Source: a virus. Taken from it: 64,000 bases of DNA. A model generated the notes under the pieces. The model was not told where the DNA came from. It was given only the letters and a program-made list of their open reading frames with translations, and made no database searches. Where the stretch lies: the IMG/VR virus record IMGVR_UViG_3300009408_000003, positions 1-64,000 of that record; one strand, 5' to 3'. Positions 7,677 through 37,483 of this stretch are shown here, piece by piece. Each line of letters begins with the position of its first letter. The first letter of the stretch is position 1. Both the position numbers and the translations under genes were made by a program.

Positions 7677-7913
7677 TTATATTTTAGTTCCGTATTTATC
7701 TATTAATTGTTTTGCAATATCTACATCAAATTTCGTTCCCCAAGATAAAATATGTAAAATAGATTCATATTCATCTCTATTATCATATGTTCCAATATAT
7801 GCTTTAGACTCGTTCGAAATAGTATCAATAGCTAATACAACACCAATTCCATCTCGACCAGTAATCCAACAATAGCCAGTTACTTCTACATTGTTATTTA
7901 TAATTTTTTTCAT
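7677..7913 (-). CDS. Hypothetical protein
   Basis: 78-aa ORF, translationally coupled to its upstream neighbour. Confidence 0.6.
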   Translation of the reverse strand: MKKIINNNVEVTGYCWITGRDGIGVVLAIDTISNESKAYIGTYDNRDEYESILHILSWGTKFDVDIAKQLIDKYGTKI

Positions 7914-8272
7914 TTTTTAATATAATTATAGGGTTTATCCCATTTTCCGATAGTGATACTAGTATAAAAGTTTGGTATGTTTCCATAATCGCCATCAACC
8001 GATTCAATAGCGTTATCTTCATCAATTATTTCATAAACTTTAGATAAAAAATCAGATTTTTCTGAAAACTCTTTATAATGACTTTTAATATGAAAACAAT
8101 TTATTTGTTCATATTTTTCATCTATATCTTTTACTAAATCAATAGGGCCGGACAGTATTGATACATTAATACCTGAATAGTTATCTGTTCTTACTGAAAA
8201 CTTAAAATCAGGAAATGCTGATTTTAATAAGTTTCGTTTAATCTTTACACTTTCTTTTGATATATAAGGCAT
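7910..8272 (-). CDS. LPD29-like (large-polyvalent-protein-associated) domain protein
   Basis: LKSAFPDFKFSVRTDNYSGINVSILSGP and a C-terminal FYTSITIGKWDKPY. Confidence 0.5.
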   Translation of the reverse strand: MPYISKESVKIKRNLLKSAFPDFKFSVRTDNYSGINVSILSGPIDLVKDIDEKYEQINCFHIKSHYKEFSEKSDFLSKVYEIIDEDNAIESVDGDYGNIPNFYTSITIGKWDKPYNYIKK

Positions 8273-8315
8273 AATTTATAATTGTTATTGTTTATTTATT
8301 TTTACATAGTAAATA

Positions 8316-8363
8316 TACAAAAAATAAATCAGACTTCCTAATATTTTTGAAATTATTTTGCAT
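8316..8363 (-). promoter_or_regulatory. 48-bp repeated promoter-like element, copy 1
   Basis: Exact match to 9105..9152 (TACAAAAAATAAATCAGACTTCCTAATATTTTTGAAATTATTTTGCAT on +). Both copies lie ~45-50 nt upstream of start codons. Confidence 0.7.
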
Positions 8364-8391
8364 AAAAAAAGGGAATATTAGTATTCCCTTT
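8364..8391 (-). terminator. Rho-independent terminator
   Basis: AAAGGGAATA-TTAG-TATTCCCTTT hairpin with a U-tract on the minus strand. Confidence 0.75.
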
Positions 8392-8414
8392 ACTCTGAAT
8401 GTCAACTGAGTTAA

Positions 8415-8591
8415 TTATTTATCAATTAATTCTTTAATTTTACCGTAATTGAAATGTATAAACAATCCAAAACAAGCTCCAGCTACAAATGACCATCCTA
8501 AAATAAGTGAAACTACAAATCCTGCACCCCAACCTAAATTAGTAATGCCAGTTGTTTTAATCCATTCTTTAATTTTTTCAATAAATTTCAT
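8415..8591 (-). CDS. Small membrane protein
   Basis: MKFIEKIKEW...GWGAGFVVSLILGWSFVAGACFGLF. I moved the start to 8591 to avoid overlap with the DUF6011 gene. Confidence 0.55.
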   Translation of the reverse strand: MKFIEKIKEWIKTTGITNLGWGAGFVVSLILGWSFVAGACFGLFIHFNYGKIKELIDK

Positions 8592-8628
8592 AATATATAG
8601 TTTTAGTTCTACTATAAATATAAAATTT

Positions 8629-9054
8629 TTATTTTTTATGACCGGAACAAACTGGTCCAACTCCTTTTTTTATACTGTTGGCATCTGTTAATGTTTTACC
8701 ACAAACTAAACAATGACCTTCGTGCATTATTTCTACATTTTTATCTAGCCATTCAAATTTACCCTTTTCAACCCAATTCAAAATAAATGCGATTGCGGTT
8801 GCAGCGGGGTTTTTATTTATTAAACCTTTTTTAAAAAGTTTTCCGTTAAAGTATGAACCTAAATAATTAAAATTTAAATATTGATTTTCGCAACGCACAT
8901 GGGTGTACCATTTGTTTTTCCAAAATTTTCTACTTATTTTATACGTATAATCTTTATTAGTTTTTAAAGATTTAATGGTAAAAATTGCACCGTTATTATT
9001 CTTTTCTCGTGTTAACACGTTAGATAACGATTTTGATGAAATTACTACTGTCAT
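8629..9054 (-). CDS. DUF6011-like Zn-binding domain protein
   Basis: C-terminal CLVCGKTLTDANSIKKGVGPVC and N-terminal FTIKSLKTNKDYTYKI. Confidence 0.7.
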   Translation of the reverse strand: MTVVISSKSLSNVLTREKNNNGAIFTIKSLKTNKDYTYKISRKFWKNKWYTHVRCENQYLNFNYLGSYFNGKLFKKGLINKNPAATAIAFILNWVEKGKFEWLDKNVEIMHEGHCLVCGKTLTDANSIKKGVGPVCSGHKK

Positions 9055-9104
9055 ATCTTTTTAAATTTTAAAGGTTTAATTATTTCTTAATTACATAATA
9101 AATG

Positions 9105-9152
9105 TACAAAAAATAAATCAGACTTCCTAATATTTTTGAAATTATTTTGCAT
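9105..9152 (-). promoter_or_regulatory. 48-bp repeated promoter-like element, copy 2
   Basis: Exact match to 8316..8363. Confidence 0.7.
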
Positions 9153-9244
9153 TAAAAACGTTAAAAATATTTTATGTTTTTATTTTTACACCGTTACTAC
9201 TTATAATTATGGTAAAATTACCCAAACGTTAAAAATAAAGTCTA

Positions 9245-10591
9245 CTATATTTTAAATTCATATACAAAGTTACCAGTATTCCATATTCGGTAGTATCCCC
9301 TCTCTGTCATAATTTCATATTCAGTTTTATTTTTATCATATCCTTGTTCAACAAGTTTATGCTTTTGAAATTTATATCTATGATATTTTATATGACTTTT
9401 AACATAAAAATAACCAGGAAGAGTAAATTTTTTAAATTTAAAATTTAATTTTTCATACACATTACCAGTTGCCCAATCTCTATTTGCATATGATATTATA
9501 TAATTAGATTTATAATTTTTAATAAAATATTTAAATAATTTATTAGCTCCTCCTGTAATTTGGGTGTTTAATTTACTACACATTCTGACTAGCTCATATG
9601 AGTTTTCTTTATGATGCAATCCAGTAGCAATTCTCAATTTTCCAAATGTCATTACTTGTACCAATTCACCATCAAAAAATAATCCTAATCTTATATTGGA
9701 AACACTACTTCCTTGCAAATGATTATTATTTAAAAATAATTGTGCATCCTTATTTGATATCTCATTTACAACGCATTTACGTGCCATAATCTTATTAGTT
9801 ATCCCCCCAAGTTTACTAAGTAATATTGATTTTATAATATCTTTACGTTTTATCCAATCAAACATCCAAATATGTATTAAATGTATATGCTGAGCAGTAC
9901 ATTCTTTTGTTTTATTTAAATGATATGATTTTTTCTTAAATAAATCACTATGGAATCTATCTCCATTTAATTCAATTGCGAGGTGTAAATCTGGTAAATA
10001 AATATCTAATTCAAGTCCGCTTAAAATTTCTTTATCGCCAGTTAGGATTTTTCCATTATAATTATTTTTTATAAATTCTAATAAGTTTAATTCTTCTTTT
10101 GATACCCCATTATAAAAATACACTCCCTTTTTATCTTTTATTCTCTTTATAGCAGCTTTTCTCATTCTCATCCGAGTTTCCTTAGTTCGAGCCATACCAA
10201 TATGCATATATACATTATGCCCAGTTTTAAATCGTCTGAAATATGGATAATATCCAAGTACCTTAGTACGTTCACCACAACCACATTCACATACAGGAGG
10301 TACACCGTTAAAAATATATTTTAAAACATATTCTTTTTTCGTAAATCCATGAGTTTTCACATGGAATGACAAATGCCGGTCTGATGCACATTGTTTTTTA
10401 CATATTTTACATTCAAATTGCTGTTTTTTTCTTATTTCGTAATTTAGATATTTTTTGCGATATTCCCCATATTTTGAAATATAGGCATCTACCGTCATAT
10501 CATGTGTATGTTTAATATGTTCAGCAATTCCATTACTCTTTGTAATAAACCCGCATTTTTTACAAACCACTTTTGATAATTCTCGTTTCAT
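9245..10591 (-). CDS. Hef-like homing endonuclease: C2H2 fingers + CxCGC + Vsr/PD-(D/E)XK nuclease + GNAT/Mom-like C-terminal domain
   Basis: CKKC/CKIC fingers, CECGC, ELDIYLPDLHLAIELNGDRFHS and YELVRMCS...GGANKLF...SYANRDW. The likely start is MKRELSK at 10591; the longer ORF-track start runs through a terminator. Confidence 0.7.
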   Translation of the reverse strand: MKRELSKVVCKKCGFITKSNGIAEHIKHTHDMTVDAYISKYGEYRKKYLNYEIRKKQQFECKICKKQCASDRHLSFHVKTHGFTKKEYVLKYIFNGVPPVCECGCGERTKVLGYYPYFRRFKTGHNVYMHIGMARTKETRMRMRKAAIKRIKDKKGVYFYNGVSKEELNLLEFIKNNYNGKILTGDKEILSGLELDIYLPDLHLAIELNGDRFHSDLFKKKSYHLNKTKECTAQHIHLIHIWMFDWIKRKDIIKSILLSKLGGITNKIMARKCVVNEISNKDAQLFLNNNHLQGSSVSNIRLGLFFDGELVQVMTFGKLRIATGLHHKENSYELVRMCSKLNTQITGGANKLFKYFIKNYKSNYIISYANRDWATGNVYEKLNFKFKKFTLPGYFYVKSHIKYHRYKFQKHKLVEQGYDKNKTEYEIMTERGYYRIWNTGNFVYEFKI

Positions 10592-10639
10592 ATATTTACT
10601 AAAAAGTTCACTATACCTATATATATAATACTTTTGGTC

Positions 10640-10695
10640 AAACGTTAAAAATAAAGCATAAAAAAGGGAAGTAAAAACTTCCCTTTGTAAATATA
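10640..10695 (-). repeat. 56-bp direct repeat containing a terminator hairpin, copy 2
   Basis: Identical to 12695..12750; contains AAAGGGAAGT-AAAA-ACTTCCCTTT. Confidence 0.9.
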
Positions 10696-10706
10696 TAAGA
10701 TATATC

Positions 10707-12653
10707 TTAGATTTTTTTAACAATTACTTCATAGTTGTCTGATTTTCCTTTATTAAATGGCGATCTATTACTGTATATTTTACCTACTTCAATAAATTTA
10801 TCATCTAATCTATCTAAAATATTATTATTCATATTAATATATAAATTATCATAGTCTAATAGTTTGCTAATAAATGTTTCTTTCCAAATATCAAACGTAT
10901 CATATTCAAATTTATTATTATAGTTCTCTAAATCAAAATATGGTATAGAAGTAAATCCAAAATCATATGTTATTTTTTCATTAAAATCTTCAATTTTACA
11001 ATTATACAATTTAACATTAGTAAAATTTCCAAGCGTTAGTAATTTATTTAATTCATTAAATGCTTCTATATTAGGTTCTACCCCAATATATGTTCCATTT
11101 GGATATATAGATTTATATCCAAGCAATCTACCTCCGAAACCAGCACATGGATCAAAAACAACAGGAGATTGGGTATTCTTTAGATATTTTTTATAAATAG
11201 CGGCCGCTAACATTGGTTTAAAAAACGAAACTGAATATCGATTTACCGTTATTCCAGTTAATAATTGTTTTAAGCTAAAATCGAATGGATTATTATTAGC
11301 TGCGCCAATTCTATATTTAATAATACGAGTCATTATTCCATCATTATTCCAAGCATCTATTGGAGATAATGAATTTTTATATGATGCTGACCAATATGAT
11401 TTAAATATTGATTTTAAAAATGAAATACCTGTATTATAATATTTATTATTAAAATCGCTGTCATTGATATTAAGTTTATCCAAATTACTATGGTTTATAT
11501 GATGCATAATATCAGATATATTTTCATTATTAGTTATAATTGGAAATTCTGATTGTATGGTTCTGATAAATTTTAGTAATAATGGAATATATCGTTCTAA
11601 TTTCGCAAGTCCTTGCTTTTCTTTGTATTTTTTTAAATACTCTTTAGAAATTATTACATCGTTAAATTTAATATCGTAATTTGGAATATATGCATTTTTT
11701 TTAATACCATCGATATTAATATCATCGGGTAAATCTGAAACGTGTATTCTAATTAAATTATATTTTGATTTTTTTATTATCTCATTTTTTTGATAATCAT
11801 TGATTATTGATGAAATCTGAGTAAATGTTAAATTTGAAATATTGCTGGGATGGAAAAAATCACCATCTACTTCAATTATATTATTATCAATAATTATATC
11901 AAACTCTTTATTTTTATAAAAAAATTTATGTTGTGCATTAAGTTCTTCGCATACATACGTTTCTATTTTAGAAGTTTTTCCATTATATTTTTTTCTGAAA
12001 GCAGGTATCTGTAAATTTGTTTTAAACCCATATTTTTTTAAATTACTATTTGCTGTTTTTACCTTTACACTATTAAGCTTAGCTGGGTTTGTTACTCCAT
12101 ATTTTTTTAAATTATTTTTTTTAATAGTATCTTTCCCTTTTTTAGTGGATGTATATGCATTTGCGCCATATTTTTTCTGATTTGTATTTTTTATTTTATT
12201 AATAGTATTATCTGATTGTAAATGCCAAGCCAATTTTTTAATTTCATCGTTTTTCATTGGATTATCCACTCCATATTTTTTTAGATTTGTTTCTTTTATT
12301 GTTTTCTGTACTTCTTTTAATAAAAAAACATTATCTACACCGTATTTTTTTCGTATAGCTTTTTTTGTATTTTTCTTAATTAATGCTTTTGTTTTTTCTG
12401 AGTGGGGCTTTCTTGGGAAGTGGTTTTTGGTGTAATCTGACCATTGTAGGACATTTTTATAAAATTTAACCGTAACTGGTGTATTACATCCACATTTACA
12501 AGTCGGATGCATCCCATCAAAATATACATTAATTATATAATCATTAAATGAAATTAAATGCGTATTTAAAATATGTAAATTTCTATCTCTAGCTGTCAAA
12601 AATTCCTTTTTACATAATTGACAAATTAAAAAATCTTTTATTTCTCGTTTCAT
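10707..12653 (-). CDS. Homing-endonuclease-like nuclease fused to an amino-DNA-methyltransferase-like domain
   Basis: CQLC and CKCGC, KYGVDNP-type repeats, FDIIIDNNIIEVDGDFFH nuclease motif, VFDPCAGFGGRLLG (SAM binding) and FTSIPY (variant of the SPPY motif). Confidence 0.7.
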   Translation of the reverse strand: MKREIKDFLICQLCKKEFLTARDRNLHILNTHLISFNDYIINVYFDGMHPTCKCGCNTPVTVKFYKNVLQWSDYTKNHFPRKPHSEKTKALIKKNTKKAIRKKYGVDNVFLLKEVQKTIKETNLKKYGVDNPMKNDEIKKLAWHLQSDNTINKIKNTNQKKYGANAYTSTKKGKDTIKKNNLKKYGVTNPAKLNSVKVKTANSNLKKYGFKTNLQIPAFRKKYNGKTSKIETYVCEELNAQHKFFYKNKEFDIIIDNNIIEVDGDFFHPSNISNLTFTQISSIINDYQKNEIIKKSKYNLIRIHVSDLPDDINIDGIKKNAYIPNYDIKFNDVIISKEYLKKYKEKQGLAKLERYIPLLLKFIRTIQSEFPIITNNENISDIMHHINHSNLDKLNINDSDFNNKYYNTGISFLKSIFKSYWSASYKNSLSPIDAWNNDGIMTRIIKYRIGAANNNPFDFSLKQLLTGITVNRYSVSFFKPMLAAAIYKKYLKNTQSPVVFDPCAGFGGRLLGYKSIYPNGTYIGVEPNIEAFNELNKLLTLGNFTNVKLYNCKIEDFNEKITYDFGFTSIPYFDLENYNNKFEYDTFDIWKETFISKLLDYDNLYINMNNNILDRLDDKFIEVGKIYSNRSPFNKGKSDNYEVIVKKI

Positions 12654-17977: not shown

Positions 17978-19669
17978 CTATTTTTTTGTGTCATCTATTG
18001 TAGATATTGTAGAAATGATAGATTTTAATGATACAGATTTAATATTTTCTGTAATTGATTGTATTGTATTTGCTAATTTGTTAGACCCGTTCTTTTTTAA
18101 ATCATTCGTGATTGCATCTATAATATCTTTTCCTGTCCATTGAGCTTTAGCAGATATAGTTGTTGCTATTTTTTCTGTTTTTTCGTCTGGATTTACATAA
18201 TCAGATCCAAATACAGATTTTTTTCTCCAATCGTTATAATTTGGACTAGAAACTCCACCTTTAGGACGTGATAACATTGGATCTTTTTCAAATTCTGGGT
18301 TGTTTTCCAATTTAGCTACCATTTTTCTAGCTTCTTCATCAAAATTAGCATCAACTAATGCAGAATATGCAATTTGTGCCATAGTTTTTTCATATTTTTC
18401 TTTGCCAAGTTTTTTTGGAGTAATACCTGTTTTTTGAATTAAAGAACTAGTAAATTTATTAATTTTTGGATTTCCAACACTAACATTATTATTAGTAGTT
18501 GCTGAACCTTGTTTTTTAAGTTGTGTATTAATATCTTTAATACGTTGATTATTAGCATCCATTTTTTGTTTAACCGCTCTTGAACTTGCAGTTTTTCCTG
18601 CTAATATATCTTGTTGTTTTATTAATTTCTTTTTTAATTTTAATAAATCATCGGTACTTTTAGTATCACTACTAGTATCAGCTTTCTTAGTAGCTACACC
18701 AATTTTTTCAGCAAATTTGTTAGCCATTGGAATAATATCTTTTGCATCTCTATCGATTACAATAACTTTCATATTTTTTGGCTTGCCAGTTTGAATTGCT
18801 CGTGATGTTATAGCAGCCCAACGATGATGACCATCTATTATATATCCATCTCTACTCACATATATAGGTGCGGTTATTCCTGAATTATTAGGATCTTTTT
18901 CTAAAGCTTTTGTCATACTTGCAACCTTAGTACCTATTAGTTCGTTTTGAGTGGCTTTTAGTGAGTCTGATGGTAATTCTGTTTGGTATGTTTTTATTCC
19001 GTTTGTTGCCAGCATTTTTCTAAATAATGGTTCAGTATCAACTTCTCCCGATTTATCCTTTTTCATTTTAGCAGCAATCGTGTTTGCTTCTGGTTTACCT
19101 TTAAATTGAGGCATTTCTGAACGAGGAATACCTAAATTGTTATCACAATATAAGTTAGTACCTGGTATAGTTATTTTACATAAATTATAGTTAGGTGCAG
19201 TTTTTCCTTTTGCACGTGCTTCTTTAGCTAGTTCATCAAGTTTATCAATTTTCATTGATATGATGTGTCGTTCTTTAGGTGAAATATCATCAATATCAGA
19301 TTTAGCATCAAATGTTTTTTTGTTAGCTTTAGGTAATAAATCTGTTATTTTAGTGGATGATACTTCTTTAGGTTTTGGAATATTTGTTATAGATTGACTA
19401 CTTTTGTTATCGGTTGAACTTGCGGATGTTGACTTATCAAATATATTTACTTTTGGTTTAGTACTAGTTGATGTAGTTGCTTTTTTATCTGTCTTTGGTT
19501 TATCTACCACGTAGTTACCGTGCTCATCCTTAATAAATGTTGGCGCATTAGCATCTGTTTCTTTACCCGTTTGTTTGTATCGTCCATGACCAACATGAGT
19601 ATATTTAGAGTCATCTGATTCATTTACTAAAAATGGTCGTAATGTTACTAATCCGCCTATTTTTATCAT
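17978..19669 (-). CDS. Mosaic protein with a ParB/Srx-like domain
   Basis: PIYVSRDGYIIDGHHRWAA, with NLGIPRSEMPQF upstream. The N-terminal YTHVGHGRYKQ module is shared with 30021..35762. Confidence 0.7.
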   Translation of the reverse strand: MIKIGGLVTLRPFLVNESDDSKYTHVGHGRYKQTGKETDANAPTFIKDEHGNYVVDKPKTDKKATTSTSTKPKVNIFDKSTSASSTDNKSSQSITNIPKPKEVSSTKITDLLPKANKKTFDAKSDIDDISPKERHIISMKIDKLDELAKEARAKGKTAPNYNLCKITIPGTNLYCDNNLGIPRSEMPQFKGKPEANTIAAKMKKDKSGEVDTEPLFRKMLATNGIKTYQTELPSDSLKATQNELIGTKVASMTKALEKDPNNSGITAPIYVSRDGYIIDGHHRWAAITSRAIQTGKPKNMKVIVIDRDAKDIIPMANKFAEKIGVATKKADTSSDTKSTDDLLKLKKKLIKQQDILAGKTASSRAVKQKMDANNQRIKDINTQLKKQGSATTNNNVSVGNPKINKFTSSLIQKTGITPKKLGKEKYEKTMAQIAYSALVDANFDEEARKMVAKLENNPEFEKDPMLSRPKGGVSSPNYNDWRKKSVFGSDYVNPDEKTEKIATTISAKAQWTGKDIIDAITNDLKKNGSNKLANTIQSITENIKSVSLKSIISTISTIDDTKK

Positions 19670-19707: not shown

Positions 19708-20355
19708 TTATTTAAACCATTTAATACCTGTTTTATATTTTTTGTCAAATTTTTTTATTTCGTTAATTAAAAAATCTGCAGTTTGTGTTTCAGTTAATTT
19801 TTGTGGTATAAGTTTAGTTATTTTTTGTAAAGAACGTTCATCTCTAATAAAATAAGTTATTCCTTCATAATTACCTCTATAAATACCATTATGTATTGCA
19901 ACTTTTCCCATACGATTATCTACAAATAATTCAATAAGATTACCATATGAGTCTCTATTAACATCATATAATTTTTTTTCCAAAATTGATGCCAATTTTA
20001 TCATATAACCATTAGCTAATTTGTTACCTTGACTTGAAAGTTTTGCACCGATTGAATTATATTTTTGTTGAGCTGCATCTAATTCTTTTTTAGCTTTTAT
20101 TACTTCAGCATCTGTGTTTTTATATGAATCTATAATATCTGCAATTTTAGTTTCATTAAGTGAACTAGGATTGTTTCCTGTTATAATTGCTTTATGAGTA
20201 TATAAATCTAGTTTACCGTTTTCAGTAATTCTAACATCATATTGAGTTTTACGAATATCGGATATTCCTTTTGAAACGTGTGTTCCAACTTCTTTTTTAA
20301 CTGAACCTAGCTCAATTTTATTTTCTGCTAAATATTTTTTTATATCAAATCCCAT
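19708..20355 (-). CDS. Putative internal head protein with an MGFDIKKYLAENKI N-terminal tag
   Basis: First 14 aa are identical to 20359..20688; internal SLNE linker. Confidence 0.65.
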   Translation of the reverse strand: MGFDIKKYLAENKIELGSVKKEVGTHVSKGISDIRKTQYDVRITENGKLDLYTHKAIITGNNPSSLNETKIADIIDSYKNTDAEVIKAKKELDAAQQKYNSIGAKLSSQGNKLANGYMIKLASILEKKLYDVNRDSYGNLIELFVDNRMGKVAIHNGIYRGNYEGITYFIRDERSLQKITKLIPQKLTETQTADFLINEIKKFDKKYKTGIKWFK

Positions 20356-20373
20356 AATTTATTTTATTTTTAT
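20315..20373. repeat. 59-bp exact duplication of a gene start (second copy 20648..20706)
   Basis: ATTTTATTTTCTGCTAAATATTTTTTTATATCAAATCCCATAATTTATTTTATTTTTAT is present twice. Confidence 0.85.
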
Positions 20374-20688
20374 TTTATTAATATGTTGCAATGATGCCTT
20401 TATTTCAGCTAAATCTGATGATAATATTTTTACATATTCTCCGTCAAAATTTTCTTTATTATTTATACGTGCAGTTGTAAAAACTTTTATTAAATATTCA
20501 AGATTTTTTATGGTGTCTTCTTTTGCTAATTTTACGTTACCTATTCCTTTATTATTATCTATATCAGTAGCCGCTATTTGCAAATATGCTTCTTTTGGAA
20601 ATTTACTTCTATCTCCGGCTTCATACATATTATGCATGCCAGTCCTTATTTTATTTTCTGCTAAATATTTTTTTATATCAAATCCCAT
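20359..20688 (-). CDS. Putative internal head protein with an MGFDIKKYLAENKI N-terminal tag
   Basis: Same 14-aa start as the downstream gene; the rest is unrelated. Confidence 0.65.
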   Translation of the reverse strand: MGFDIKKYLAENKIRTGMHNMYEAGDRSKFPKEAYLQIAATDIDNNKGIGNVKLAKEDTIKNLEYLIKVFTTARINNKENFDGEYVKILSSDLAEIKASLQHINKIKIK

Positions 20689-20702: not shown

Positions 20703-21290
20703 TTATATTAATTCTTCTATTATTTCTCGCATTAATGATTGTGCCTTACAATATTTACTGCATACTATTGGTGTACCAAAAGTTTTTGATTCATTAACCG
20801 GTCTCATAAATGCACCTTGTGTTGACGGATTAGATACAAAATCCCAACTAATTAATTCAAAATCTTCGCCTACTCGTACTCCGCCTTCATTACGAGCAGT
20901 AACTGATCCCATTCCACGAGATGAAATTCCCAATAAAATACCAGCTCTTAATAATTCTTTTAAAATGTTTCCAGATGGGGTTGGTAATACTTCAATTGTA
21001 CCAACTAAATCATTTCCATCCCAATGAATTTCTCTAACGTTGTGTGATACGTTTTTTAGATTAATTACTGAACTGTCCGGGTGATCTAATTCACCTAAAG
21101 CGCGTCGTTCTTTAATTAATTGACCATATTTTACTGCTTCGCGTTCTAATACGCGTTTTGGATATACTCTTTCATTTTGATTTGGAGCATCTGCACGTTG
21201 TAAAACACCGCGAACAATAGTTCTACCGTGCGAATCTTCATTAAGTTGTCCTTTAAACAAACTTGTTTCTATTAGTAATTGTCTTTCCAT
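20703..21290 (-). CDS. Prohead protease (T4 gp21-like)
   Basis: NQNERVYP, ALGELDHP, VSH, GISSRGMGS and FELISWDFVSNPST. Confidence 0.92.
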   Translation of the reverse strand: MERQLLIETSLFKGQLNEDSHGRTIVRGVLQRADAPNQNERVYPKRVLEREAVKYGQLIKERRALGELDHPDSSVINLKNVSHNVREIHWDGNDLVGTIEVLPTPSGNILKELLRAGILLGISSRGMGSVTARNEGGVRVGEDFELISWDFVSNPSTQGAFMRPVNESKTFGTPIVCSKYCKAQSLMREIIEELI

Positions 21291-22624: not shown

Positions 22625-24043
22625 TTATTTTTCAATTTCTTTTAAAGTTCTTGCAATATTTACAAGACGTTCCTTTATTTTATAAATATGTCTATTTGTT
22701 CGTTTCCAATAGGAATCTGATTCTAATTCATTAATATTCTTGATTTTATTATACCAACCTAGAAATTTTTCCACTTCTTGTAATTGGTTTTGTAAACCTT
22801 TTAATCCCATAGCAAGTTTTTTATGTGGAGATATGGATTTATCATTTTTTAAATTTAGCCACCTATTCACTTTAGGTGGTGCAACTTCTTTTATATTTTT
22901 TTTACCTAATTTTTTTAAAATTGAATTTACTGAATCGTTACCTTTAATTGTTAATATTCGTTTACCATTATAATATAAATCTTTATCAACTACATGCCAC
23001 ATTCCTTTTTTATAGATATTAAGTTCATGTCGTAATACAGTTTCTAGTGAAGTTGGTAATTTTGATTTTGGCCAAAACACTCCTTCTTTTATATTTTCAA
23101 AAATTACATTAAATCTATTATTTATTGATTCATCAACATTTGTTTCTTGCGGAACTGCATTAAATTTATATTTCATCCATGATACTGAATGACTGTTGTC
23201 AGACCAATCTAATGTCCATCTATTCGGATTCCATGAATTATGTTTATTTAATATTACAACAGCATCACCTAATTTAAATTCAATTTTATGATTATCAAAT
23301 GTAGTTTCAGCTATTGATTCATCTTCAACAGTTGCAAGTTTTGTATAATATTTTGGATCTTCAAATAAATGATCTAATGTAATTTCTTTAGCAAGATTTA
23401 TATCTGTTGTGTGTTCTATTTCAACTTTAATTCCTCGTTGAAATTCTTTTGTTAACTCATTAATATCATTATTATGCTTGCGTGCAATATCTCCAAGATT
23501 TAATCCTTTAGCTAAACCACCAGGAATTAAATCTTGAATTTCTTTTATTGAATGAGCTGTATTAGATTCATTAGCATTTTCTGCAAATACCAATAAATCT
23601 TTAGTACGTTTTATTAATGTTTCTTTTGAAATACCAAGTGAATCAGCAGTTACACTCAATAAAAAGTTATTTTTAAGAAAAGCTTTTACTTGGGGTTTAG
23701 TTGCGATTGCTGATTTAAAGTAAGTATGTGCTATATTATTAAGTTCTTTTGATGTAAGTTTTCCTTTAAAATACGCAGTCATCGCTTCACTTTTAGTATT
23801 ATAAGTTGCTTCACTTATATTATGTACATCATTACCAATAACTTCATAACCGGCTTGGGTAGAAACCGTTTTAGTTTTATCTTTTGATTTTTTAGAATTA
23901 TCTCCGAATACATTCGGAGTATTATACCCAGCAACAGCGCCTGTAGTTGTTTCTTCTAATTCTTCATCTTTCTTAATTTCAAGAAATACTTCATCGATTA
24001 TTTCATCAATATATTTAGACAGTTTTTTTCTTTTTTGCATCAT
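22625..24043 (-). CDS. Mosaic head-associated protein containing a DUF5661-like module
   Basis: IPGGLAKG...GIKVEIEH...ITLDHLFEDPKYYTKL, with many NES/DES/IKE linkers. Confidence 0.7.
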   Translation of the reverse strand: MMQKRKKLSKYIDEIIDEVFLEIKKDEELEETTTGAVAGYNTPNVFGDNSKKSKDKTKTVSTQAGYEVIGNDVHNISEATYNTKSEAMTAYFKGKLTSKELNNIAHTYFKSAIATKPQVKAFLKNNFLLSVTADSLGISKETLIKRTKDLLVFAENANESNTAHSIKEIQDLIPGGLAKGLNLGDIARKHNNDINELTKEFQRGIKVEIEHTTDINLAKEITLDHLFEDPKYYTKLATVEDESIAETTFDNHKIEFKLGDAVVILNKHNSWNPNRWTLDWSDNSHSVSWMKYKFNAVPQETNVDESINNRFNVIFENIKEGVFWPKSKLPTSLETVLRHELNIYKKGMWHVVDKDLYYNGKRILTIKGNDSVNSILKKLGKKNIKEVAPPKVNRWLNLKNDKSISPHKKLAMGLKGLQNQLQEVEKFLGWYNKIKNINELESDSYWKRTNRHIYKIKERLVNIARTLKEIEK

Positions 24044-30020: not shown

Positions 30021-33000
30021 CTATTTTTTATAAAAAATACCTAAAAGTTGATTAAGGGCAGCAAAACCGCCGGTCATTTTAATCGTATGATCATTATATA
30101 CAAAAACGATTCCTTCGCTTGGTACAATTCTATCGATACCACCTATTGAATCTAATCGTTTTAATTCTAATTTTAATTTTTCAATTTTTTTAGGATCTTT
30201 TGATTGAGTAACATCTTTAATCGTTTGAGTTATTCTATCTTTTATTTTTTGTAAAGCTTCATCTGGATTAACGGTAAGTACTGATTTTGTAAATTCTAAA
30301 ACATCTGCACCAATACCTAAAAATATATTTTCGAATTTCATTAAATTTTGTTTTGAAATTTTATCGTGATCATTACTATCAATTTGTTTAGCCCAAGTTA
30401 ATGCTTTATCATCTGATATAGTTTTTGTATTTAATCTAAATGATTTATCTGAAAATGCCCATCGTTTAACTAATCCGACTAACGCAGTTTTATCTAATGT
30501 TGTAGGTGAATTTTTTATAATATAGTTTTCCCACCAAGCTTGATGATACGCAGCTACTCCATCAGTATCTTTTAATCCAAATTCTTTTTCTAAATTATTA
30601 ATTTTACTAATATATGCCGGTTTTTTAGCACTTAAATTTTGATTTTTAGGTAACTTAATAATAGGTGGGCCTTGAATAGTATAAGTATTTTGAACATTTT
30701 GATTTATTTGTTTTATCATACCTGCAAGTAGTTTGGCATCGGTTGTAGATTCTCCAATCGGTTTTCCGTCTAATCCATATTCAAACGTACCATGAAATAT
30801 TAATAATGATTGACCATACGCTATTACATTTACTGATTTTGGAAATATAACTTCAAGCTGCATGAATTTTGCACCATTAGCAAATATTTTATCTTTTTGT
30901 TTTTGAGATAATCCACCAATAGCTTTTGTTAAATCTTGCATTGCGAAATTATATGCATCGGTTAATCCACCTCTACCTTTAAATTTAGCCGCTATTCCTT
31001 TAATATCCATTGCATTTTCTCCGTGGTTCTTTAATTGTCCCGTATTTCTTGCAGCTATCAATTTTCCGTTTTTCCAACTAATTGACAGTGCTACGCCATC
31101 TGTTTTTTCGCGTGTAAATTCTAAATTTCCGTCTAAAGCTTTATTAGCAATATCTTTAAGTTGACCAAACGTTAAATTTACATCAATATCGAATGGGTGG
31201 CTCATGTGTCCATAAGTTCCGCCGCATTGTAATAAAATTTTATCGTTATCTTTATAGTTATTATCTGCTAATACAAACTGTTCAAGATTTTCATCCAAAT
31301 CATCTACTAAATCGTGTATAGATTCATGAACTGTGTTCTTAAATTTAGATACTGAAATTTCATTTTTAGATTCTATATGTAATTCTGGCGTTTTATTTTG
31401 GTGCCACGTAGCGGTTCTTAATATAGTTTTTGCAATGAGTTTATTTGCAGTTTTTATAAATGGTATATTAATATTAGTTTTATCATCTTTTACCATTATT
31501 TCGTTATAGTTAGAAAGAAAATCCTTTAATTCTGATTTATGTTTTGATAATCGTGTAAAGAAATCTATTAATTCTTTTTCTGTTATTTCTATCTTGTTTC
31601 TAGGATCATTAACTCTATCAAAAAAATGATTAGTAAATATAATATCTTCTGGCCTCATTTTATTATCTGCAACTTTATCAATCGTATTTAATTGTTGCCA
31701 TCCCATTTCATGCAAACCACCTTTATCCATTTTATCCGAAAACTTTTTTAATTTATCAAATGAACCAAAACTTTTTAATTTTCGTTGTTTAGCTAATCTC
31801 ATATTATCAAAATTTTTCATTCTCATATGATTTTTTACAATAAAAAATATTTTTGATGGTGTTCCTCCTAAATTAATGATAATATTACGATATTTTTTTA
31901 TTAATGCTGCTGATATTTTTTCATGATCATAATGAGTTATACGACCAGTCTTTGGATTAATTCCGCTAGTTTCATCTTTACCGATATCATGAAACAATCC
32001 CGCTATAGCTAAATTAATATCATCTGGACTTTGTTTTAATGCTCGATTAACTACTGTTATTGTATGTTTTAAAACGTTTCCTTCTGGGTGGTGTATTGTA
32101 TCTTGTCTTATGTGTTTTAGATTTAAAACACGTTTCTGTAAATCAGTAGGTAGTTTACTAAAAAGCTCTTTAAACGTTCTTATTTGCAATTTATTATTTA
32201 TATTAGATTCATTTAAATATCGTTTTTCTTCTTCATTATTAATCCAGTTTCCAATTTCTTTACCTTTTATATTAGCCGGTGCATCTTTCCCAGTTACATT
32301 AATACTAAATTTGACAAATTTAGTATAATCTACTTTATTATGATTACCATAATCTATAATTTGTTTATTTGTTAATGTTGTTCGTTTTTGCTGTTTTTTA
32401 TACTCAACAATATCTTTTGGTTTGAATTTATCTAATGATTGTAAAAATATTACATTAATAATATCTTTTGTAGTATATCCTATTTTATTTAAAACATTTT
32501 CTAATAAATCTTTACTATTTTTCTTTAATAATTGAGCCATTACTACAATATAATCTGAATCATCTATGTATGGTTTATTTATTTTTAAATTTGGAAATGT
32601 TAATGATAAAAATTTTAGTTTTTCCATTAAATCTAAATAGGTTTTAGTTGATTTAGCAGATTCTATTGATTTTATAAATTCCATTCTAATTCTATTTGGA
32701 CTGACATCCTTTAATGTAGGATCTTTCTTAATTGCAAGTAAGGTATCTGTATCCATGCTTCCACCTAATTTAGAAGTAAATCTAACAGCTCGTAATTTAC
32801 GTAAATGATCTTCTGCAAACCTATCTGCTGCATTTCCTACTGTTCTAATTTTTTTATCTTTTAAATCTTTTATACCACCAACTAAATCAACAATTTCTTT
32901 ACGATCAATATCATAAAATAGTGCATTAATTGTTAAATCTCTGCGTTTTACATCCCCCTCAATATCAGTATAATCTATTCCAGTTAGTTTACGATTTTTA

Positions 33001-35762
33001 CCTATATCAGTTCTAAATTGTGTTACTTCATCGCCATCTATTATAACTGTTCCATATTTTATACTGATAGTATCACATTTTAATCCTTCTTTTTTACAAA
33101 TATCAACCATTTCATCTGCTTTTGCATCGGTTGATAAATCGAAATCATGTGGCTTTTTGCCTAAAATAGCATCTCTAACTGCTCCACCTACTACATATAA
33201 TTTTTTACCGTGTTTTTTAAATGCTTTATCAATTTTTTTAACACTTGCTGGTAATGCAAGATTTAATGTATGTTTAGCTTCTGTAATTATGGTATTTTCA
33301 GTTACATTTTCTTTATTATAATTAGTAATAATACGTTTCATTATTTCTGGCGGAATTTTCTCCGTACCAAATCGTTTAAGTACTATTTTTAAAAATGTTT
33401 CTAATGCTTTATCATCAGGTTCGACACCGGCAAATAATGCTGCTTTACCAGCCCCTTTTAATATAGTTTCAGCAACTACGTGTGGAATAAATTCTTGTGC
33501 AACATGACCGGCAAATGCTATAAGACCATGACCAATTCCGCCAGTTGCAACGCCAAAAAGAGCTGTTGTAACTACTTTTATAGCTACACCTTTTAACGCA
33601 GATTTTTCTTCATCTGATAGATTTTTTCCAGACATGAAATGTTTTGCTGCTATTCCTGCATATTTAAATTCTTCTATTTCTTCTTTTGCACCGTGTTTTA
33701 TCTTAATTAAACTACCTTTTAATTTATCTTTAATAGTTTCTGCTATGGTTCGTCTTAATTTAGACTCGCCATTATGCATTTCTTGCACAAAAAAATGTTT
33801 TTCTTCATCAGACCATGTTTCTAATTTTTTACGTACATCTGCAAATTTATCAGTCGTTTTTTGTTTTATTGTTCCAGATACATTTGATTTAGATTTATCT
33901 GAGGTTGATTTATCAAAAATATTTGGTGTTGGACTTGCAGTTTTTTTACCTAATTTTTTTGTACTGGTGGTTACATAGTGACCACTAGCGTTTTTAGTAT
34001 ATACAGGTGCTGATTTATCCTTTTCAGAACCAACTTTTTTATATCTACCGTATCCAATATGTGTGAATTTGTCATCTTCACTTTCAATTATAATATTTGA
34101 GGCTAGTTCGTGTATATGTTTAAATGATACGTCATCCCATTTACGAGAAAGTTTTAATAATGGAATAATATCTAAATTTATTCGTACTGCAACTATCTTA
34201 GCTTTGTTATTTAATGCATATAAGGCCAACACTCTATGATGACCATCTAAAATATATCCGCCTTTAGAAACTACAATTGGTTTAGATAAATTAGATACAG
34301 ATTTAGTCATTAATGTTTCTACTTTATCTCTATTAATATTTTTTTGTGTAAGATTTAATTTTGATATTGGTATTTTTTCAATTTTATATGAATAACCATT
34401 AGCTTTAATATATTTTAAATAGTTTTTTAATTTACTAGATTCAATTTGTGGCATATCTTTACGAGGAATACCTAAATTTTTAAATCCTGTTGTTATATCT
34501 TCGGTTACTATACTTTCAAAAACGTTTGGTGCTTTTTTAAATAATCTGAATGTTGTTATGCTTCTACCATTAATAGTAGGCATGCCGTGTGCATCAACTC
34601 CTATATCTTTAACTACTACTTTTTTATTTTTGAATTTTCCCATTAAAATAGTATCGCCAATATCAACTGGTAATGTTATATTTTCATTCATGTATAATTC
34701 AAATTCGAACTCAATTTCCCTGTCAGCATGGGCTATTTCGCCAGATAACGCTTTTATTTGTGCTTCTGCATTTTTTTCAAGTTGAGTTTTTAATAATTCA
34801 TAACCAGCTAATGTAGCTTTTCGTGTTGCATGTGCATACCATTTTGTATATGCATTACTTGAATAAATATCAATTTGGTTATTCGGTGTCATAGCTCCAA
34901 TTACACCTGCAGGATAGAATGATACAGCTGTTACTGGGCCTTTTGGATAAGTCGGATAATTCTGATAATCTTCAACATCTTTAGTCATTATCATATTAAT
35001 AACCTCGTATCCTATTTTTTTAGCTCGTATTGTTGACACTTTAGAAAATGTATCGAACGTTCCAATAAAACTAGATGGCCCATCATCAGCATCAACTGTA
35101 CCGAGCGAGTTTTCATTTAATAACCATTCTTCAATTGTTTCTTTACTAATTTCAACTATTTCATTTAATTTAGATGTAACTAAATTAAAAATTGTTTTAT
35201 TGTAACTAGGAAAAGCTACCGTTTCAAAGAATTTTTTCTTTTCATCTGTTGTTCCTAATGCTAATCCGTTTCTAACGGTTGTACCACTTAATGTACTAAG
35301 TGTTGGCGCGATAAATACATATCCAGCATCTTTATATGGTTCAGTTGGTTTATTATTATCAAGTTTTCTAAAATATTTTCCGCCTAGCCTTGTTGAATCT
35401 TTTTTACCAACTACAGCAACATATGCAGTAGTATTTTCATCAAATTTACTTAAAATTTCAACTGGTTTATATGGATTTCTAATCTGAATTACATTTGATT
35501 TTGGAATATCAAACATAGTAGTTATTATTTTAAATTTTTCTTTAAAATTAAATGGTGATTTATCTTTAGAAACAACATTAGAAGTACCTATATAGATATT
35601 ATTTTTTCCGAATTTTTTAACTAAATATAAATATATTGCATAATGACCATTATGAAATGGCTGAAATCGGCCTGTAAAAATTACAATTGTTCTTTTTATT
35701 TTATCAGGTGTATCTTCTAAAAGTATTTGTTTTACTAAATAATTACTTAATTTTGTATTCAT
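30021..35762 (-). CDS. 1913-aa polyvalent protein: HIGH-motif nucleotidyltransferase, ParB-like, CCA-adding enzyme, HD domain, KxDG ligase-like C-terminal domain
   Basis: TGRFQPFHNGH; YILDGHHR; YVVGGAVRD...DFD...RRDLTINAL...EDHLRKLRAVRF; HHPEG...FHDIGK; GHMSHPFD...EKTDG. Confidence 0.8.
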   Translation of the reverse strand: MNTKLSNYLVKQILLEDTPDKIKRTIVIFTGRFQPFHNGHYAIYLYLVKKFGKNNIYIGTSNVVSKDKSPFNFKEKFKIITTMFDIPKSNVIQIRNPYKPVEILSKFDENTTAYVAVVGKKDSTRLGGKYFRKLDNNKPTEPYKDAGYVFIAPTLSTLSGTTVRNGLALGTTDEKKKFFETVAFPSYNKTIFNLVTSKLNEIVEISKETIEEWLLNENSLGTVDADDGPSSFIGTFDTFSKVSTIRAKKIGYEVINMIMTKDVEDYQNYPTYPKGPVTAVSFYPAGVIGAMTPNNQIDIYSSNAYTKWYAHATRKATLAGYELLKTQLEKNAEAQIKALSGEIAHADREIEFEFELYMNENITLPVDIGDTILMGKFKNKKVVVKDIGVDAHGMPTINGRSITTFRLFKKAPNVFESIVTEDITTGFKNLGIPRKDMPQIESSKLKNYLKYIKANGYSYKIEKIPISKLNLTQKNINRDKVETLMTKSVSNLSKPIVVSKGGYILDGHHRVLALYALNNKAKIVAVRINLDIIPLLKLSRKWDDVSFKHIHELASNIIIESEDDKFTHIGYGRYKKVGSEKDKSAPVYTKNASGHYVTTSTKKLGKKTASPTPNIFDKSTSDKSKSNVSGTIKQKTTDKFADVRKKLETWSDEEKHFFVQEMHNGESKLRRTIAETIKDKLKGSLIKIKHGAKEEIEEFKYAGIAAKHFMSGKNLSDEEKSALKGVAIKVVTTALFGVATGGIGHGLIAFAGHVAQEFIPHVVAETILKGAGKAALFAGVEPDDKALETFLKIVLKRFGTEKIPPEIMKRIITNYNKENVTENTIITEAKHTLNLALPASVKKIDKAFKKHGKKLYVVGGAVRDAILGKKPHDFDLSTDAKADEMVDICKKEGLKCDTISIKYGTVIIDGDEVTQFRTDIGKNRKLTGIDYTDIEGDVKRRDLTINALFYDIDRKEIVDLVGGIKDLKDKKIRTVGNAADRFAEDHLRKLRAVRFTSKLGGSMDTDTLLAIKKDPTLKDVSPNRIRMEFIKSIESAKSTKTYLDLMEKLKFLSLTFPNLKINKPYIDDSDYIVVMAQLLKKNSKDLLENVLNKIGYTTKDIINVIFLQSLDKFKPKDIVEYKKQQKRTTLTNKQIIDYGNHNKVDYTKFVKFSINVTGKDAPANIKGKEIGNWINNEEEKRYLNESNINNKLQIRTFKELFSKLPTDLQKRVLNLKHIRQDTIHHPEGNVLKHTITVVNRALKQSPDDINLAIAGLFHDIGKDETSGINPKTGRITHYDHEKISAALIKKYRNIIINLGGTPSKIFFIVKNHMRMKNFDNMRLAKQRKLKSFGSFDKLKKFSDKMDKGGLHEMGWQQLNTIDKVADNKMRPEDIIFTNHFFDRVNDPRNKIEITEKELIDFFTRLSKHKSELKDFLSNYNEIMVKDDKTNINIPFIKTANKLIAKTILRTATWHQNKTPELHIESKNEISVSKFKNTVHESIHDLVDDLDENLEQFVLADNNYKDNDKILLQCGGTYGHMSHPFDIDVNLTFGQLKDIANKALDGNLEFTREKTDGVALSISWKNGKLIAARNTGQLKNHGENAMDIKGIAAKFKGRGGLTDAYNFAMQDLTKAIGGLSQKQKDKIFANGAKFMQLEVIFPKSVNVIAYGQSLLIFHGTFEYGLDGKPIGESTTDAKLLAGMIKQINQNVQNTYTIQGPPIIKLPKNQNLSAKKPAYISKINNLEKEFGLKDTDGVAAYHQAWWENYIIKNSPTTLDKTALVGLVKRWAFSDKSFRLNTKTISDDKALTWAKQIDSNDHDKISKQNLMKFENIFLGIGADVLEFTKSVLTVNPDEALQKIKDRITQTIKDVTQSKDPKKIEKLKLELKRLDSIGGIDRIVPSEGIVFVYNDHTIKMTGGFAALNQLLGIFYKK

Positions 35763-35800
35763 ATGATATTATATTATATTATCTAATATATAAATATAAC

Positions 35801-35866: not shown

Positions 35867-37483
35867 TTATCTCATTCCAGGAAGTTGCGGCTGTAATACT
35901 GGTGTTTTTTCTTGTTTAGTAGCAATAACACATGATGTCATTAATAGTAATCCGGCAACAGATGCACTGTGTGTTAATGCAAGTCGTGTTACTTTTGTAG
36001 GATCTATAATTCCAGCTTTTAGCATATTTACATATTCATTTGTTCTTACATTATATCCATAATTTTTTTTAGATGCTTCTATTTTACTAAGAATAACATC
36101 TGGCGATATTCCTGCGTTTTCAATTATTATTCTAAAAGGGGCCTCAATTGCAGTTTGTACAATTTTTACTCCTAGTTGTTCATCTTCGGTTAATGTTTGA
36201 TTTATTTTTAGATTTTTCGATGCGTTTATTAATGCTAAACCACCGCCGATTACAATCCCTTCTTCTACTGCAGCACGTGTTGCATGCAACGCATCATCAA
36301 CTCTATCTTTTTTCTCCTTCATTTCAGTTTCAGTAGATGCTCCAATATAAATTATCGCAACACCACCACTTATTTTAGCTAAACGTTCTTGAAGTTTTTC
36401 TTTATCATATTCTGATGTTGAATTTTCTATTTGTTGTTTTATAACACTTATACGAGATTTAATATCAGTTGATTTACCACCTCCGTTAATAAATGTAGTT
36501 GTATCTTTATCAATATTTATTTTTTCGCAAGTACCCAAGTGTGAAAGTGTTGCATCTTCTAATTTTAATCCAACTTCATCAGATATTACTGTTCCGCCAG
36601 TTAAAACGGCTGTATCTTCTAATATTTCTTTTCTTCTATTTCCAAATGCTGGTGCCTTTATTGCTGCTATTTTTAATGAACCTCTTAATTTGTTTACTAC
36701 GAGTGTTCCAAGTGCTTCACCATCGATATCACTTGCAATTATTAATAATGGTCGACCACTATTAGCAACAGGTTCTAGTAATGGTAATAAATCGTTTATT
36801 GTAGATATTTTTTTATCATACAATAAAATATAAGGATTTTCTAATTCGCATACTAGCGTTTCTTGATTTGTTATAAAATATGGTGAAAGGTAACCTTTAT
36901 CATATTGCATGCCTTCTACCGTTTTTACTTCAATTTCAGTACCTTTAGCTTCTTCTACAGTAATTACTCCGTTTTTACCAACTTTTTCCATAGCATCTCC
37001 AATCATTAATCCAATAGTTTCATCATTATTTGCTGAAATTGTTGCTATTTGTACAATTTCTTCTGGTGATGATACTAATTTTGAATTTTTTCTTAGGTTA
37101 TCTACTATATGATTAACCGCTATATCAATACCACGTTTTAATTCAGTTGGATTTGCGCCTGATGTAACTAGTTTTAATCCTGAATTAAATATTGATTGAG
37201 TTAATACAGTAGCGGTAGTAGTACCATCACCTGCTAAATCATTCGTTTTTGAAGCAACGTCTTTTACAAGCTGAGCTCCCATATTTTCAATTGGATCATC
37301 AAGTTCTACACTTTTTGCAACAGTAACACCATCCTTTGTAATATGAGGAGAAGAAAGTTTTTTACTTAAAACTACATTTCTACCTTTTGGCCCTAATGTA
37401 CAGCTTACTGCAGCTGATAATTTATCAACTCCTTGTTTAAGTTTCATTCTTGATTCGTTACCATGTATTATAATTTTTGTCAT
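35867..37483 (-). CDS. groEL: Chaperonin GroEL
   Basis: [43 protein letters not shown] and [19 protein letters not shown]. Confidence 0.95.

Follow-up and report, generated by a model that had tools for sequence, protein, structure and literature searches.

A 1913-residue reading frame upstream of terL

The stretch of DNA analysed here (the window) comprises 64,000 nucleotides, positions 1 to 64,000 of the IMG/VR viral contig IMGVR_UViG_3300009408_000003. One unbroken open reading frame (ORF) at positions 30021-35762 of the minus strand encodes a protein of 1913 aa, and this strand, on which all modules of the protein lie, holds nearly all genes of the window (G+C 28%). The source record is 120,327 bp long with an estimated completeness of 71%, and genome-wide absences reported below are therefore weak evidence.

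The 1913-aa ORF is preceded by a 1948-residue ORF and by genes for a tail-fibre assembly protein and for GroEL of the phage. It is followed by two small ORFs, terL and the portal gene; beyond these lies a T4-type head module that encodes a prohead protease of the gp21 type (Peptidase_S77), a scaffold-like protein and a major capsid protein of the Gp23 type. An earlier annotation made from the letters alone (the sequence-only reading) had placed the gene ahead of terL, which is correct with the two small ORFs intervening. It had also divided the protein into a series of named domains, all of which were found again with Pfam and PHROG profiles and motifs, agreeing to within a few codons. By comparison of TerL, Microcystis phage Mel-JY01 (59%) and Flavobacterium phage immuto (54%) came closest among the deposited phages, together with a 484-kb metagenomic phage. 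Protein P0122 (96% identity) was considered as a variant and rejected, since it is a truncated gene call of the same 1913-aa protein.

An NMNAT-like domain and an RNA-ligase-fold domain form the two ends

The protein starts with a 16-residue peptide that ends in ILLE (35715..35762) and is a candidate capsid-targeting propeptide. It is kept as MNELSxYLVEQILLE in at least 24 full-length orthologues. The peptide is a separate element, because in the orthologue from LR756508 a ParB-like domain is inserted between it and the transferase that follows. LR756508 is the 484-kb metagenomic phage; its orthologue with this insertion is 915 residues long (7950-10697).

Residues 17-204 (35151..35714) constitute a nucleotidyltransferase domain with a HIGH motif. 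Pfam CTP_transf_like (PF01467) matches residues 28-107 with 27 bits (cut-off 21), and the motifs GRFQPFHNGH (31-40) and SGTTVR (159-164) are intact. The profile of the domain family detects the archaeal NMNAT MJ0541 (2e-6) and NadM (2.6e-6) in the PDB. The equivalog level for NMNAT was missed with both models (NF002243, 28.6 bits with a cut-off of 127; TIGR01527, 22.7 bits with a cut-off of 181), and therefore the domain is only called NMNAT-like here. The 'NMNAT' gp088 of immuto was rejected as a relative, as BLAST similarity was absent. A gene for Nampt was not found in the 120 kb of the record.

The opposite end, residues 1514-1913 (30024..31223), is an RNA-ligase-fold covalent nucleotidyltransferase domain according to its predicted fold and its motifs. 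An AlphaFold2 model built from an alignment of 24 stand-alone relatives reached a predicted local distance difference test (pLDDT) score of 86.7 and a predicted TM-score (pTM) of 0.82. In the VIA exhaustive structure search the model matched REL1 (Z 8.3), the Naegleria ligase NgrRnl (8.2), T4 Rnl2 (7.8), Trl1 (7.6), T4 Rnl1 (7.5) and the archaeal Rnl3 (6.8). Altogether, eight RNA ligases were found at Z 8.3 to 6.5 over 170-200 residues, and DNA ligases and capping enzymes followed at Z 5-6; the Z-scores are middling, yet the list is homogeneous. Foldseek against the PDB likewise gave exclusively RNA ligases in the top rows, at weak E-values. Motif I is EKTDG at residues 1552-1556, in which K1553, D1555 and G1556 are invariant in the 24 stand-alone and 35 long relatives. 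Motifs III (E in LEV), IIIa (H in FHG), IV (EG in EGIVF) and V (K in K-L/M-TG) are invariant too and follow in this order; they were assigned by pattern and order, not by residue-level superposition. A helical insert of approximately 210 residues separates motifs IIIa and IV, and a conserved element, GGxxGHMxHPFD, precedes motif I. The ligase fold that the sequence-only reading had put forward for the C-terminal domain is thereby borne out by the model, the structural matches and the invariant KxDG.

Searches by sequence did not lead to this result. The domain has no Pfam match even at E 10, and a profile search of the PDB revealed no ligase apart from LigA at E 2. Matches to plant eS6 (2e-4) fall into the K/E-rich helical insert and were judged to be spurious. 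Based on the model, we assign the domain to a new family within the ligase superfamily, for which adenylation and joining activity are predicted. A match in BFVD suggests a distant ligase-like part in a 591-residue protein of S-PM2 (E 1e-4, TM 0.39). Profiles for Rnl1 and Rnl2 gave no match in the 120 kb examined.

The ends are fixed and the middle is swappable

The ligase-like domain is present in at least 1636 metagenomic clusters at 50% identity and in only three of 50,697 deposited phage records. It nearly always constitutes the extreme C-terminus, behind 0-1500 variable residues. From IMG/VR contigs with sufficient upstream sequence we obtained 26 distinct full-length viral ORFs (823-2106 residues), all of which have the peptide and the NMNAT-like domain at the start and the ligase domain at the end; the cargo between the two bookends is mosaic. 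The minimal form is that of Mel-JY01: its gene, too, lies upstream of terL and encodes the two bookends joined without cargo (639 residues). Cargo visible to Pfam is sparse in 35 long relatives: DUF5661 is found in ten, PolyA_pol in four, HD and P-loop kinase in three each, and SprT-like in one. Comparing modules among orthologues, as proposed with the sequence-only reading, thus gave fixed bookends with swappable cargo, the CCA-type and HD modules being present together in about a quarter.

In two loci (L070, 6213-11221, and L052) the ligase domain is encoded by a gene of its own with 414 residues, the start of which shares four bases with the stop of the ORF upstream of it (1255 residues). 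This could be a real split of the polyprotein or a frameshift site.

T4 gp63 (Rnl1) has a dual role as an RNA ligase and in tail-fibre attachment. The ligase-like bookend might in the same way act in virion assembly, with the cargo riding along. The domain is highly conserved among relatives (60-69% identity) and the cargo varies, and the genes for fibre, fibre chaperone and GroEL are located immediately upstream, as would be expected. This fibre neighbourhood is not kept in Mel-JY01, however, the catalytic ligase motifs are all invariant, and the structural match favours no single Rnl family. We consider such a role in assembly very improbable.

Module junctions often lie at the gp21-type motif

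The phage encodes a prohead protease of the T4 gp21 type (20703..21290, minus strand; Pfam Peptidase_S77, 8e-29). T4 gp21 cuts after Glu in L/I-x-E, and redundant sites are present in propeptides (PMC9026906). Its substrates enter the prohead via short N-terminal peptides, and the targeting peptide is 10 residues long (PMC9026906; PMC3012670). In the window, the N-terminus of the protease itself carries LIE at residues 6-8, and the capsid protein has LDE↓A (the arrow marking the candidate cut) at residues 59-61, just ahead of the start of the Gp23 match.

The sequence-only reading had listed such linkers at the module boundaries of the 1913-aa protein. Over the whole protein this short motif, [LIVM]xE, shows no enrichment, with 26 sites versus 25.1 +/- 4.1 in shuffled sequences. 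A list of linkers could therefore be cherry-picked, and module boundaries were for this reason derived independently as BLAST breakpoints against approximately 300 relatives. Seven of the 15 breakpoints lie within five residues of a motif Glu, versus a null mean of 1.9 (P ~0.0006), and two more show the near-variants LHIE↓S and LLQC↓GG. The claim about the linkers hence stands for their position and fails for overall enrichment. The family as a whole shows the same: motif density increases approximately four-fold at breakpoints, from 0.014 to ~0.06 per position, and the share of Glu with L/I/V/M at position P3 doubles.

The junction in front of the ligase domain is the clearest case. Among 231 distinct sequences, P3 is L or I in 226 of the 230 scored (98%) and P1 is E in 200 of 231 (87%) and C in 15. 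The junction is commonly doubled, with a second site four to five residues upstream in the pattern INES-xLLxE↓GG, which matches the redundancy described for propeptides. Stand-alone ligase genes begin with a 15-residue peptide ending in LLKE↓GG. In the 1913-aa protein the corresponding region is a disordered linker (residues 1481-1513, 31224..31322; pLDDT <50) that contains LDE and ends in LLQC; LDE and VHE sites are located 22-33 residues upstream of the LLQC junction. Judged from the protein sequences, the idea of linkers for a protease holds: Peptidase_S77 and Gp23 are encoded, and the junctions carry the motif of gp21-type enzymes both here and family-wide.

Links to the head and to virion proteins

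Several head-module genes share features with the 1913-aa protein. The ORF at 17978..19669 (minus strand; phrog_2859, 5.7e-19) contains the THIGYGRY and ParB-like modules in reversed order. Its first 17 residues form a peptide with the end VNE↓S, immediately ahead of the former module, which reads THVGHGRY here. Two adjacent, otherwise unrelated head-module ORFs (19708-20688) both start with MGFDIKKYLAE↓N, a candidate capsid-targeting tag. DUF5661, the commonest Pfam-visible cargo of the polyprotein family (10 of 35), is also encoded in the head module by an ORF at 22625-24043 (472 residues; 3e-14), which has 16 [LIVM]xE sites.

Virion proteomes of T4-like cyanophages determined by mass spectrometry list a 'cytidylyltransferase', ORF154 in S-CREM2 and S-SZBM1_140 in S-SZBM1 (PMC10665884; PMC9146016). 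With the profile of the NMNAT-like N-domain, exactly these proteins were found as the single match in each genome, S-SZBM1_140 with 3.5e-10 and S-CREM2 gp154 with 2.2e-6 (hhalign 85%). The proteins start with MRFRQFIIE↓A and MKNFSSFLTE↓A, respectively, peptides which we take to resemble the T4 targeting peptide closely. Delivery with the virion thus has indirect experimental backing from these N-domain homologues in S-CREM2 and S-SZBM1. The virion protein S-SZBM1_139, encoded beside the cytidylyltransferase, was considered as a ligase homologue and rejected by the ligase profile search.

A promoter-like motif, TATATTTATA, is located at 35789..35798 on the minus strand, 27 nt before the start codon of the 1913-aa ORF. 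The window contains 12 copies versus 3.7 expected, nine of the 12 being on the coding strand, and the motif is also found ahead of the portal and giant-fibre genes (examples of sites: 26928, 35789, 44890 and 55452). TATATTTATA is thus a promoter candidate for this phage. No enrichment was seen for the T4 late promoter TATAAATA (41 versus 32.7 expected), and none of its copies is in coding orientation upstream of the 1913-aa gene. The putative late motif of the sequence-only reading is accordingly present upstream of the gene and enriched, but it differs from the T4 late promoter in coding orientation. Just upstream of TATATTTATA, a terminator-like hairpin follows the GroEL gene.

The CCA-type and HD modules and the phage tRNAs

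A class II tRNA nucleotidyltransferase module of the CCA type comprises residues 829-1185 (32208..33278). It consists of a PolyA_pol head (855-973; PF01743, 5.8e-26, 91.7 bits, cut-off 23) and an RNA-binding domain (1003-1059; PF12627, 25.6 bits, cut-off 22). Motifs A (GGAVRD..DFD, 859-875), B (RRD, 940-942) and D (EDHLR, 984-988) are intact. The module matches phrog_2244 with 4.9e-55, and CCA enzymes as well as poly(A) polymerase in the PDB with ~1e-30. The adjacent module, residues 1186-1352 (31707..32207), is a phosphohydrolase of the HD/HDIG type (1231-1317; PF01966, 30.6 bits, cut-off 22; TIGR00277 HDIG, 28.9 bits, cut-off 27.6) with the metal-site motifs HHP at 1224 and HDIGK at 1258. 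Orthologues always have the CCA module beside HD, mostly in the order HD-CCA; the order here is CCA-HD, and HD is also found without CCA. Both together are cargo in about six of the 26 full-length orthologues. RNA-end repair is therefore one cargo option and not a constant of the family.

Beyond the window, at 93711-105224 of the same genome, 31 tRNA genes are located, all on the minus strand; two of these calls have odd anticodon loops. Between 28 and 29 of the 31 genes lack an encoded CCA, which is clearly present only in two Met tRNAs. The 1913-aa ORF is the sole gene with a PolyA_pol-family domain in the record. This context of an adjacent HD module and CCA-less phage tRNAs favours CCA-adding over poly(A) specificity. 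An RtcB-family RNA ligase is encoded elsewhere in the genome, also beyond the window (115579-116661); profile positions 1-86 and 135-426 are matched separately within a single open frame of 389 residues.

Cleavage of tRNA tails is documented as an immune mechanism (PMC12851939). Supplied together with the DNA, a CCA enzyme would be available to the phage's own tRNAs from the first minutes, and it could equally rebuild 3′ ends taken off by host nucleases; the HD partner fits a prior removal of the terminal phosphate. We consider counter-defence and the maturation of the phage's own tRNAs comparably likely roles for the pair. Classical healing and sealing of anticodon breaks requires a 5′ kinase. 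It would be incomplete here, because the 1913-aa protein contains no such kinase. The tRNA/RNA-repair kit of the sequence-only reading is accordingly right as to the presence of CCA, HD and ligase-fold modules; its purpose may be a different one from counter-defence, as CCA and HD are optional, the kinase is missing and the phage's CCA-less tRNAs explain the CCA module equally well.

The same tRNAs raise the question whether the protein is packaged at all. It might be a cytoplasmic multi-enzyme, cut or uncut, that matures and maintains the 31 phage tRNAs, the hydrophobic-x-Glu motif being due to linker composition only. The number of tRNA genes without CCA together with the single CCA-type gene in the record would be explained by this, as would the lack of overall [LIVM]xE enrichment and the location of the gene beyond the head module. 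It does not account for the concentration of the motif at junctions and the conserved L/I at P3 before the ligase domain, nor for CCA being present in only about a quarter of the orthologues. In addition, homologues of the N-domain are virion proteins, and the promoter-like motif is common to the portal and fibre genes. An unpackaged enzyme is thus unlikely.

The other inner modules

Six further parts of the protein are located outside the CCA and HD modules. Residues 218-360 (34683..35111) form a module without an assigned function that is common to 24 viral loci; it has no Pfam match, and a profile search of the PDB gave nothing meaningful. Next to it is a mobile mini-module of approximately 55 residues (361-421, 34500..34682), flanked by MNE and VFE/VTE, whose position varies among the 50 of 82 viral loci that have it. 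The ParB/Srx-like module that follows (422-560, 34083..34499) contains DGHHR at 506-510 and was identified with PHROG profiles (phrog_2859, 7e-27, residues 406-553; the ParB-like phrog_620, 2e-4); Pfam ParBc_2 reaches 14.8 bits and stays under its cut-off of 23.6. The THIGYGRY module (561-641, 33840..34082) is present in 14 viral loci in addition to the head-module ORF described above. It is followed by a helical module (642-828, 33279..33839), present in 25 loci, with a conserved glycine-rich hydrophobic stretch at 722-775 (Kyte-Doolittle 1.59 over 19 residues); a PDB profile search with this module gave no meaningful match.

The FTNHFFDR module (1353-1480, 31323..31706) is found in 50 of 82 loci; Flavobacterium phage immuto and Methylophilales phage Melnitz encode it as a gene of its own. 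Structure prediction was unusable (pLDDT 43.8), and searches with PDB profiles and in the ESM Atlas returned nothing. Residues 1365-1439 have faint, non-significant matches to RegB and phrog_14518, from which an RNase could be suspected. In immuto (7716-11059) the module is gp080, a protein of 252 residues. The adjoining gp079 (841 residues) has doubled MNES-VNEG and LKES-LNED sites and is possibly a further polyprotein near terL.

These modules allow a different view of the cargo. It could be packaged and processed and yet be offensive, with the PolyA_pol module polyadenylating host RNA for decay, the FTNHFFDR module acting as an RNase and the ParB-like module disabling host nucleic acids as a nuclease or NTPase. 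Polyvalent proteins typically contain ParB and RNase domains (PMC5512222), which together with the faint RegB matches is in line with such a payload. Scores of hidden Markov models (HMMs) do not split CCA-adding enzyme from poly(A) polymerase either, with 160.7 bits for TIGR02692 and 159 for pcnB, both under their cut-offs. However, the CCA module always lies beside HD, as in multifunctional Cca, and the phage tRNAs need CCA addition. Since the RegB matches are non-significant and the fold prediction for FTNHFFDR failed, we regard an offensive payload as rather improbable.

Two side observations concern the neighbourhood. Immediately upstream of the 1913-aa ORF, a full-length GroEL-type chaperonin is encoded at 35867-37483 (phrog_5725, 3e-175), and two large homing-endonuclease-like ORFs (9245-12653; phrog_3339 and phrog_559) are located immediately behind the capsid gene.

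A probable head-targeted, protease-released enzyme set

Taken together, we think, with modest confidence, that the 1913-aa protein is probably a head-targeted set of enzymes released by the phage's own prohead protease of the T4 gp21 type. The short N-terminal peptide would direct the chain to the prohead's scaffolding core, and the protease would cut the module junctions behind the Glu of [L/I/V]-x-E. Approximately ten separate proteins would be released that are too large for an escape from the shell; they would stay with the DNA in the capsid and be carried into the next host alongside it, like T4 Alt and the internal proteins. The family-wide payload would then consist of the NMNAT-like nucleotidyltransferase and the previously unrecognised RNA-ligase-fold enzyme. 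The cargo specific to this phage would be the CCA-adding enzyme, the HD phosphoesterase, the ParB-like module and five further modules. CCA and HD together could clean and rebuild tRNA 3′ ends, those of the phage's own CCA-less tRNAs as well as those of damaged host tRNAs.

A number of points weigh against such an enzyme set. Besides the missing enrichment of the motif over the whole protein, several of the 15 breakpoints have no canonical site, and the junction before the ligase domain is LLQC in the window and not LLxE, which belongs to the minority with Cys at P1. The gene adjoins terL outside the head module, and with 218 kDa the precursor would be a large load for the scaffolding core. 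The homology to the cyanophage virion proteins is distant and confined to the N-domain, and a search of S-SZBM1 and S-CREM2 with the ligase profile gave no match. The unsplit scores for CCA and poly(A) specificity belong here as well, as does the 5′ kinase (AAA_33), which was found neither in the protein nor in the 120 kb examined.

Extended to the whole family, the same idea is more tentative: it is possible, at somewhat less than even chances, that T4-like phages of an abundant aquatic clade with hardly any cultured members follow a true polyprotein strategy, with fixed ends and modules that are swapped between head-protease sites, so that a customised set of enzymes, in this phage with tRNA 3′-end repair among them, is injected before phage gene expression. 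If true, RNA-end repair and NMNAT-like chemistry would join the virion-delivered functions at time zero, which is relevant to defences that target tRNAs or deplete NAD. Neither Pfam nor sequence searches of solved structures reveal the new RNA-ligase-fold family, which has more than 1600 clusters. With its fixed ends and swappable middle, the architecture would lend itself naturally to the packaging of foreign proteins into T4-like capsids, and the cultured Microcystis phage Mel-JY01 makes the polyprotein idea directly testable.

Comparison with known systems

A full-text literature search found no published description of such a polyprotein. The combination of a modular polyprotein with fixed ends, a new ligase family and a new payload chemistry is new, and its parts can be compared with known systems. 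Multifunctional bacterial CCA proteins also have head motifs A, B and D together with an HD/HDIG domain; in the phage, a cleavage-type junction separates the CCA module from the HD module, the order is CCA-HD and the equivalog cut-offs are missed. With the ATP-dependent RNA ligases (Rnl1, Rnl2/REL1, Rnl3, Rnl5 and Trl1) the C-terminal domain shares the fold, the KxDG lysine and motifs III, IIIa, IV and V. Unlike these, it has no sequence match in Pfam or the PDB, and its helical domain of approximately 210 residues is inserted and not appended.

Polyvalent proteins (Iyer et al., 2017; PMC5512222) carry 2-15 unrelated conflict-type domains per polypeptide, change fast and in a mosaic manner, include a ParB-like domain and are predicted to be delivered together with DNA, all of which resembles the 1913-aa protein and the cargo of its family. 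The 1913-aa protein itself, however, lacks peptidase, MuF and portal domains (SprT-like is present in only one of the 35 relatives), and the proposed processing by the prohead protease and the fixed N- and C-terminal bookends are distinctive. In the survey of polyvalent proteins CCA-adding enzymes are not mentioned and an association with RNA ligase was not found (PMC5512222). Many ejection proteins of giant phages of the phiKZ/SPN3US type are located inside the head and cut after Glu at short, redundant motifs (PMC9026906). Their motif is S/A-x-E, the lineage is unrelated and modular enzyme chains of this kind are not present.

A further comparison is with the T4 internal proteins IPI-III and Alt. 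The head is of the same type with Peptidase_S77 and Gp23, a short N-terminal peptide ends in L/I-x-E, and the payload is diverse, fast-evolving and present at time zero (PMC3012670; PMC9026906), the delivery being inferred for the phage described here. The T4 proteins are small and separately encoded, whereas approximately ten modules are contained in one 1913-residue precursor with internal cleavage-type junctions, and the NMNAT-like, RNA-ligase-like, CCA and HD payload has no counterpart among the T4 head proteins. If our interpretation is true, the T4 internal-protein principle would extend from small single proteins to a modular chain of enzymes released by a protease.

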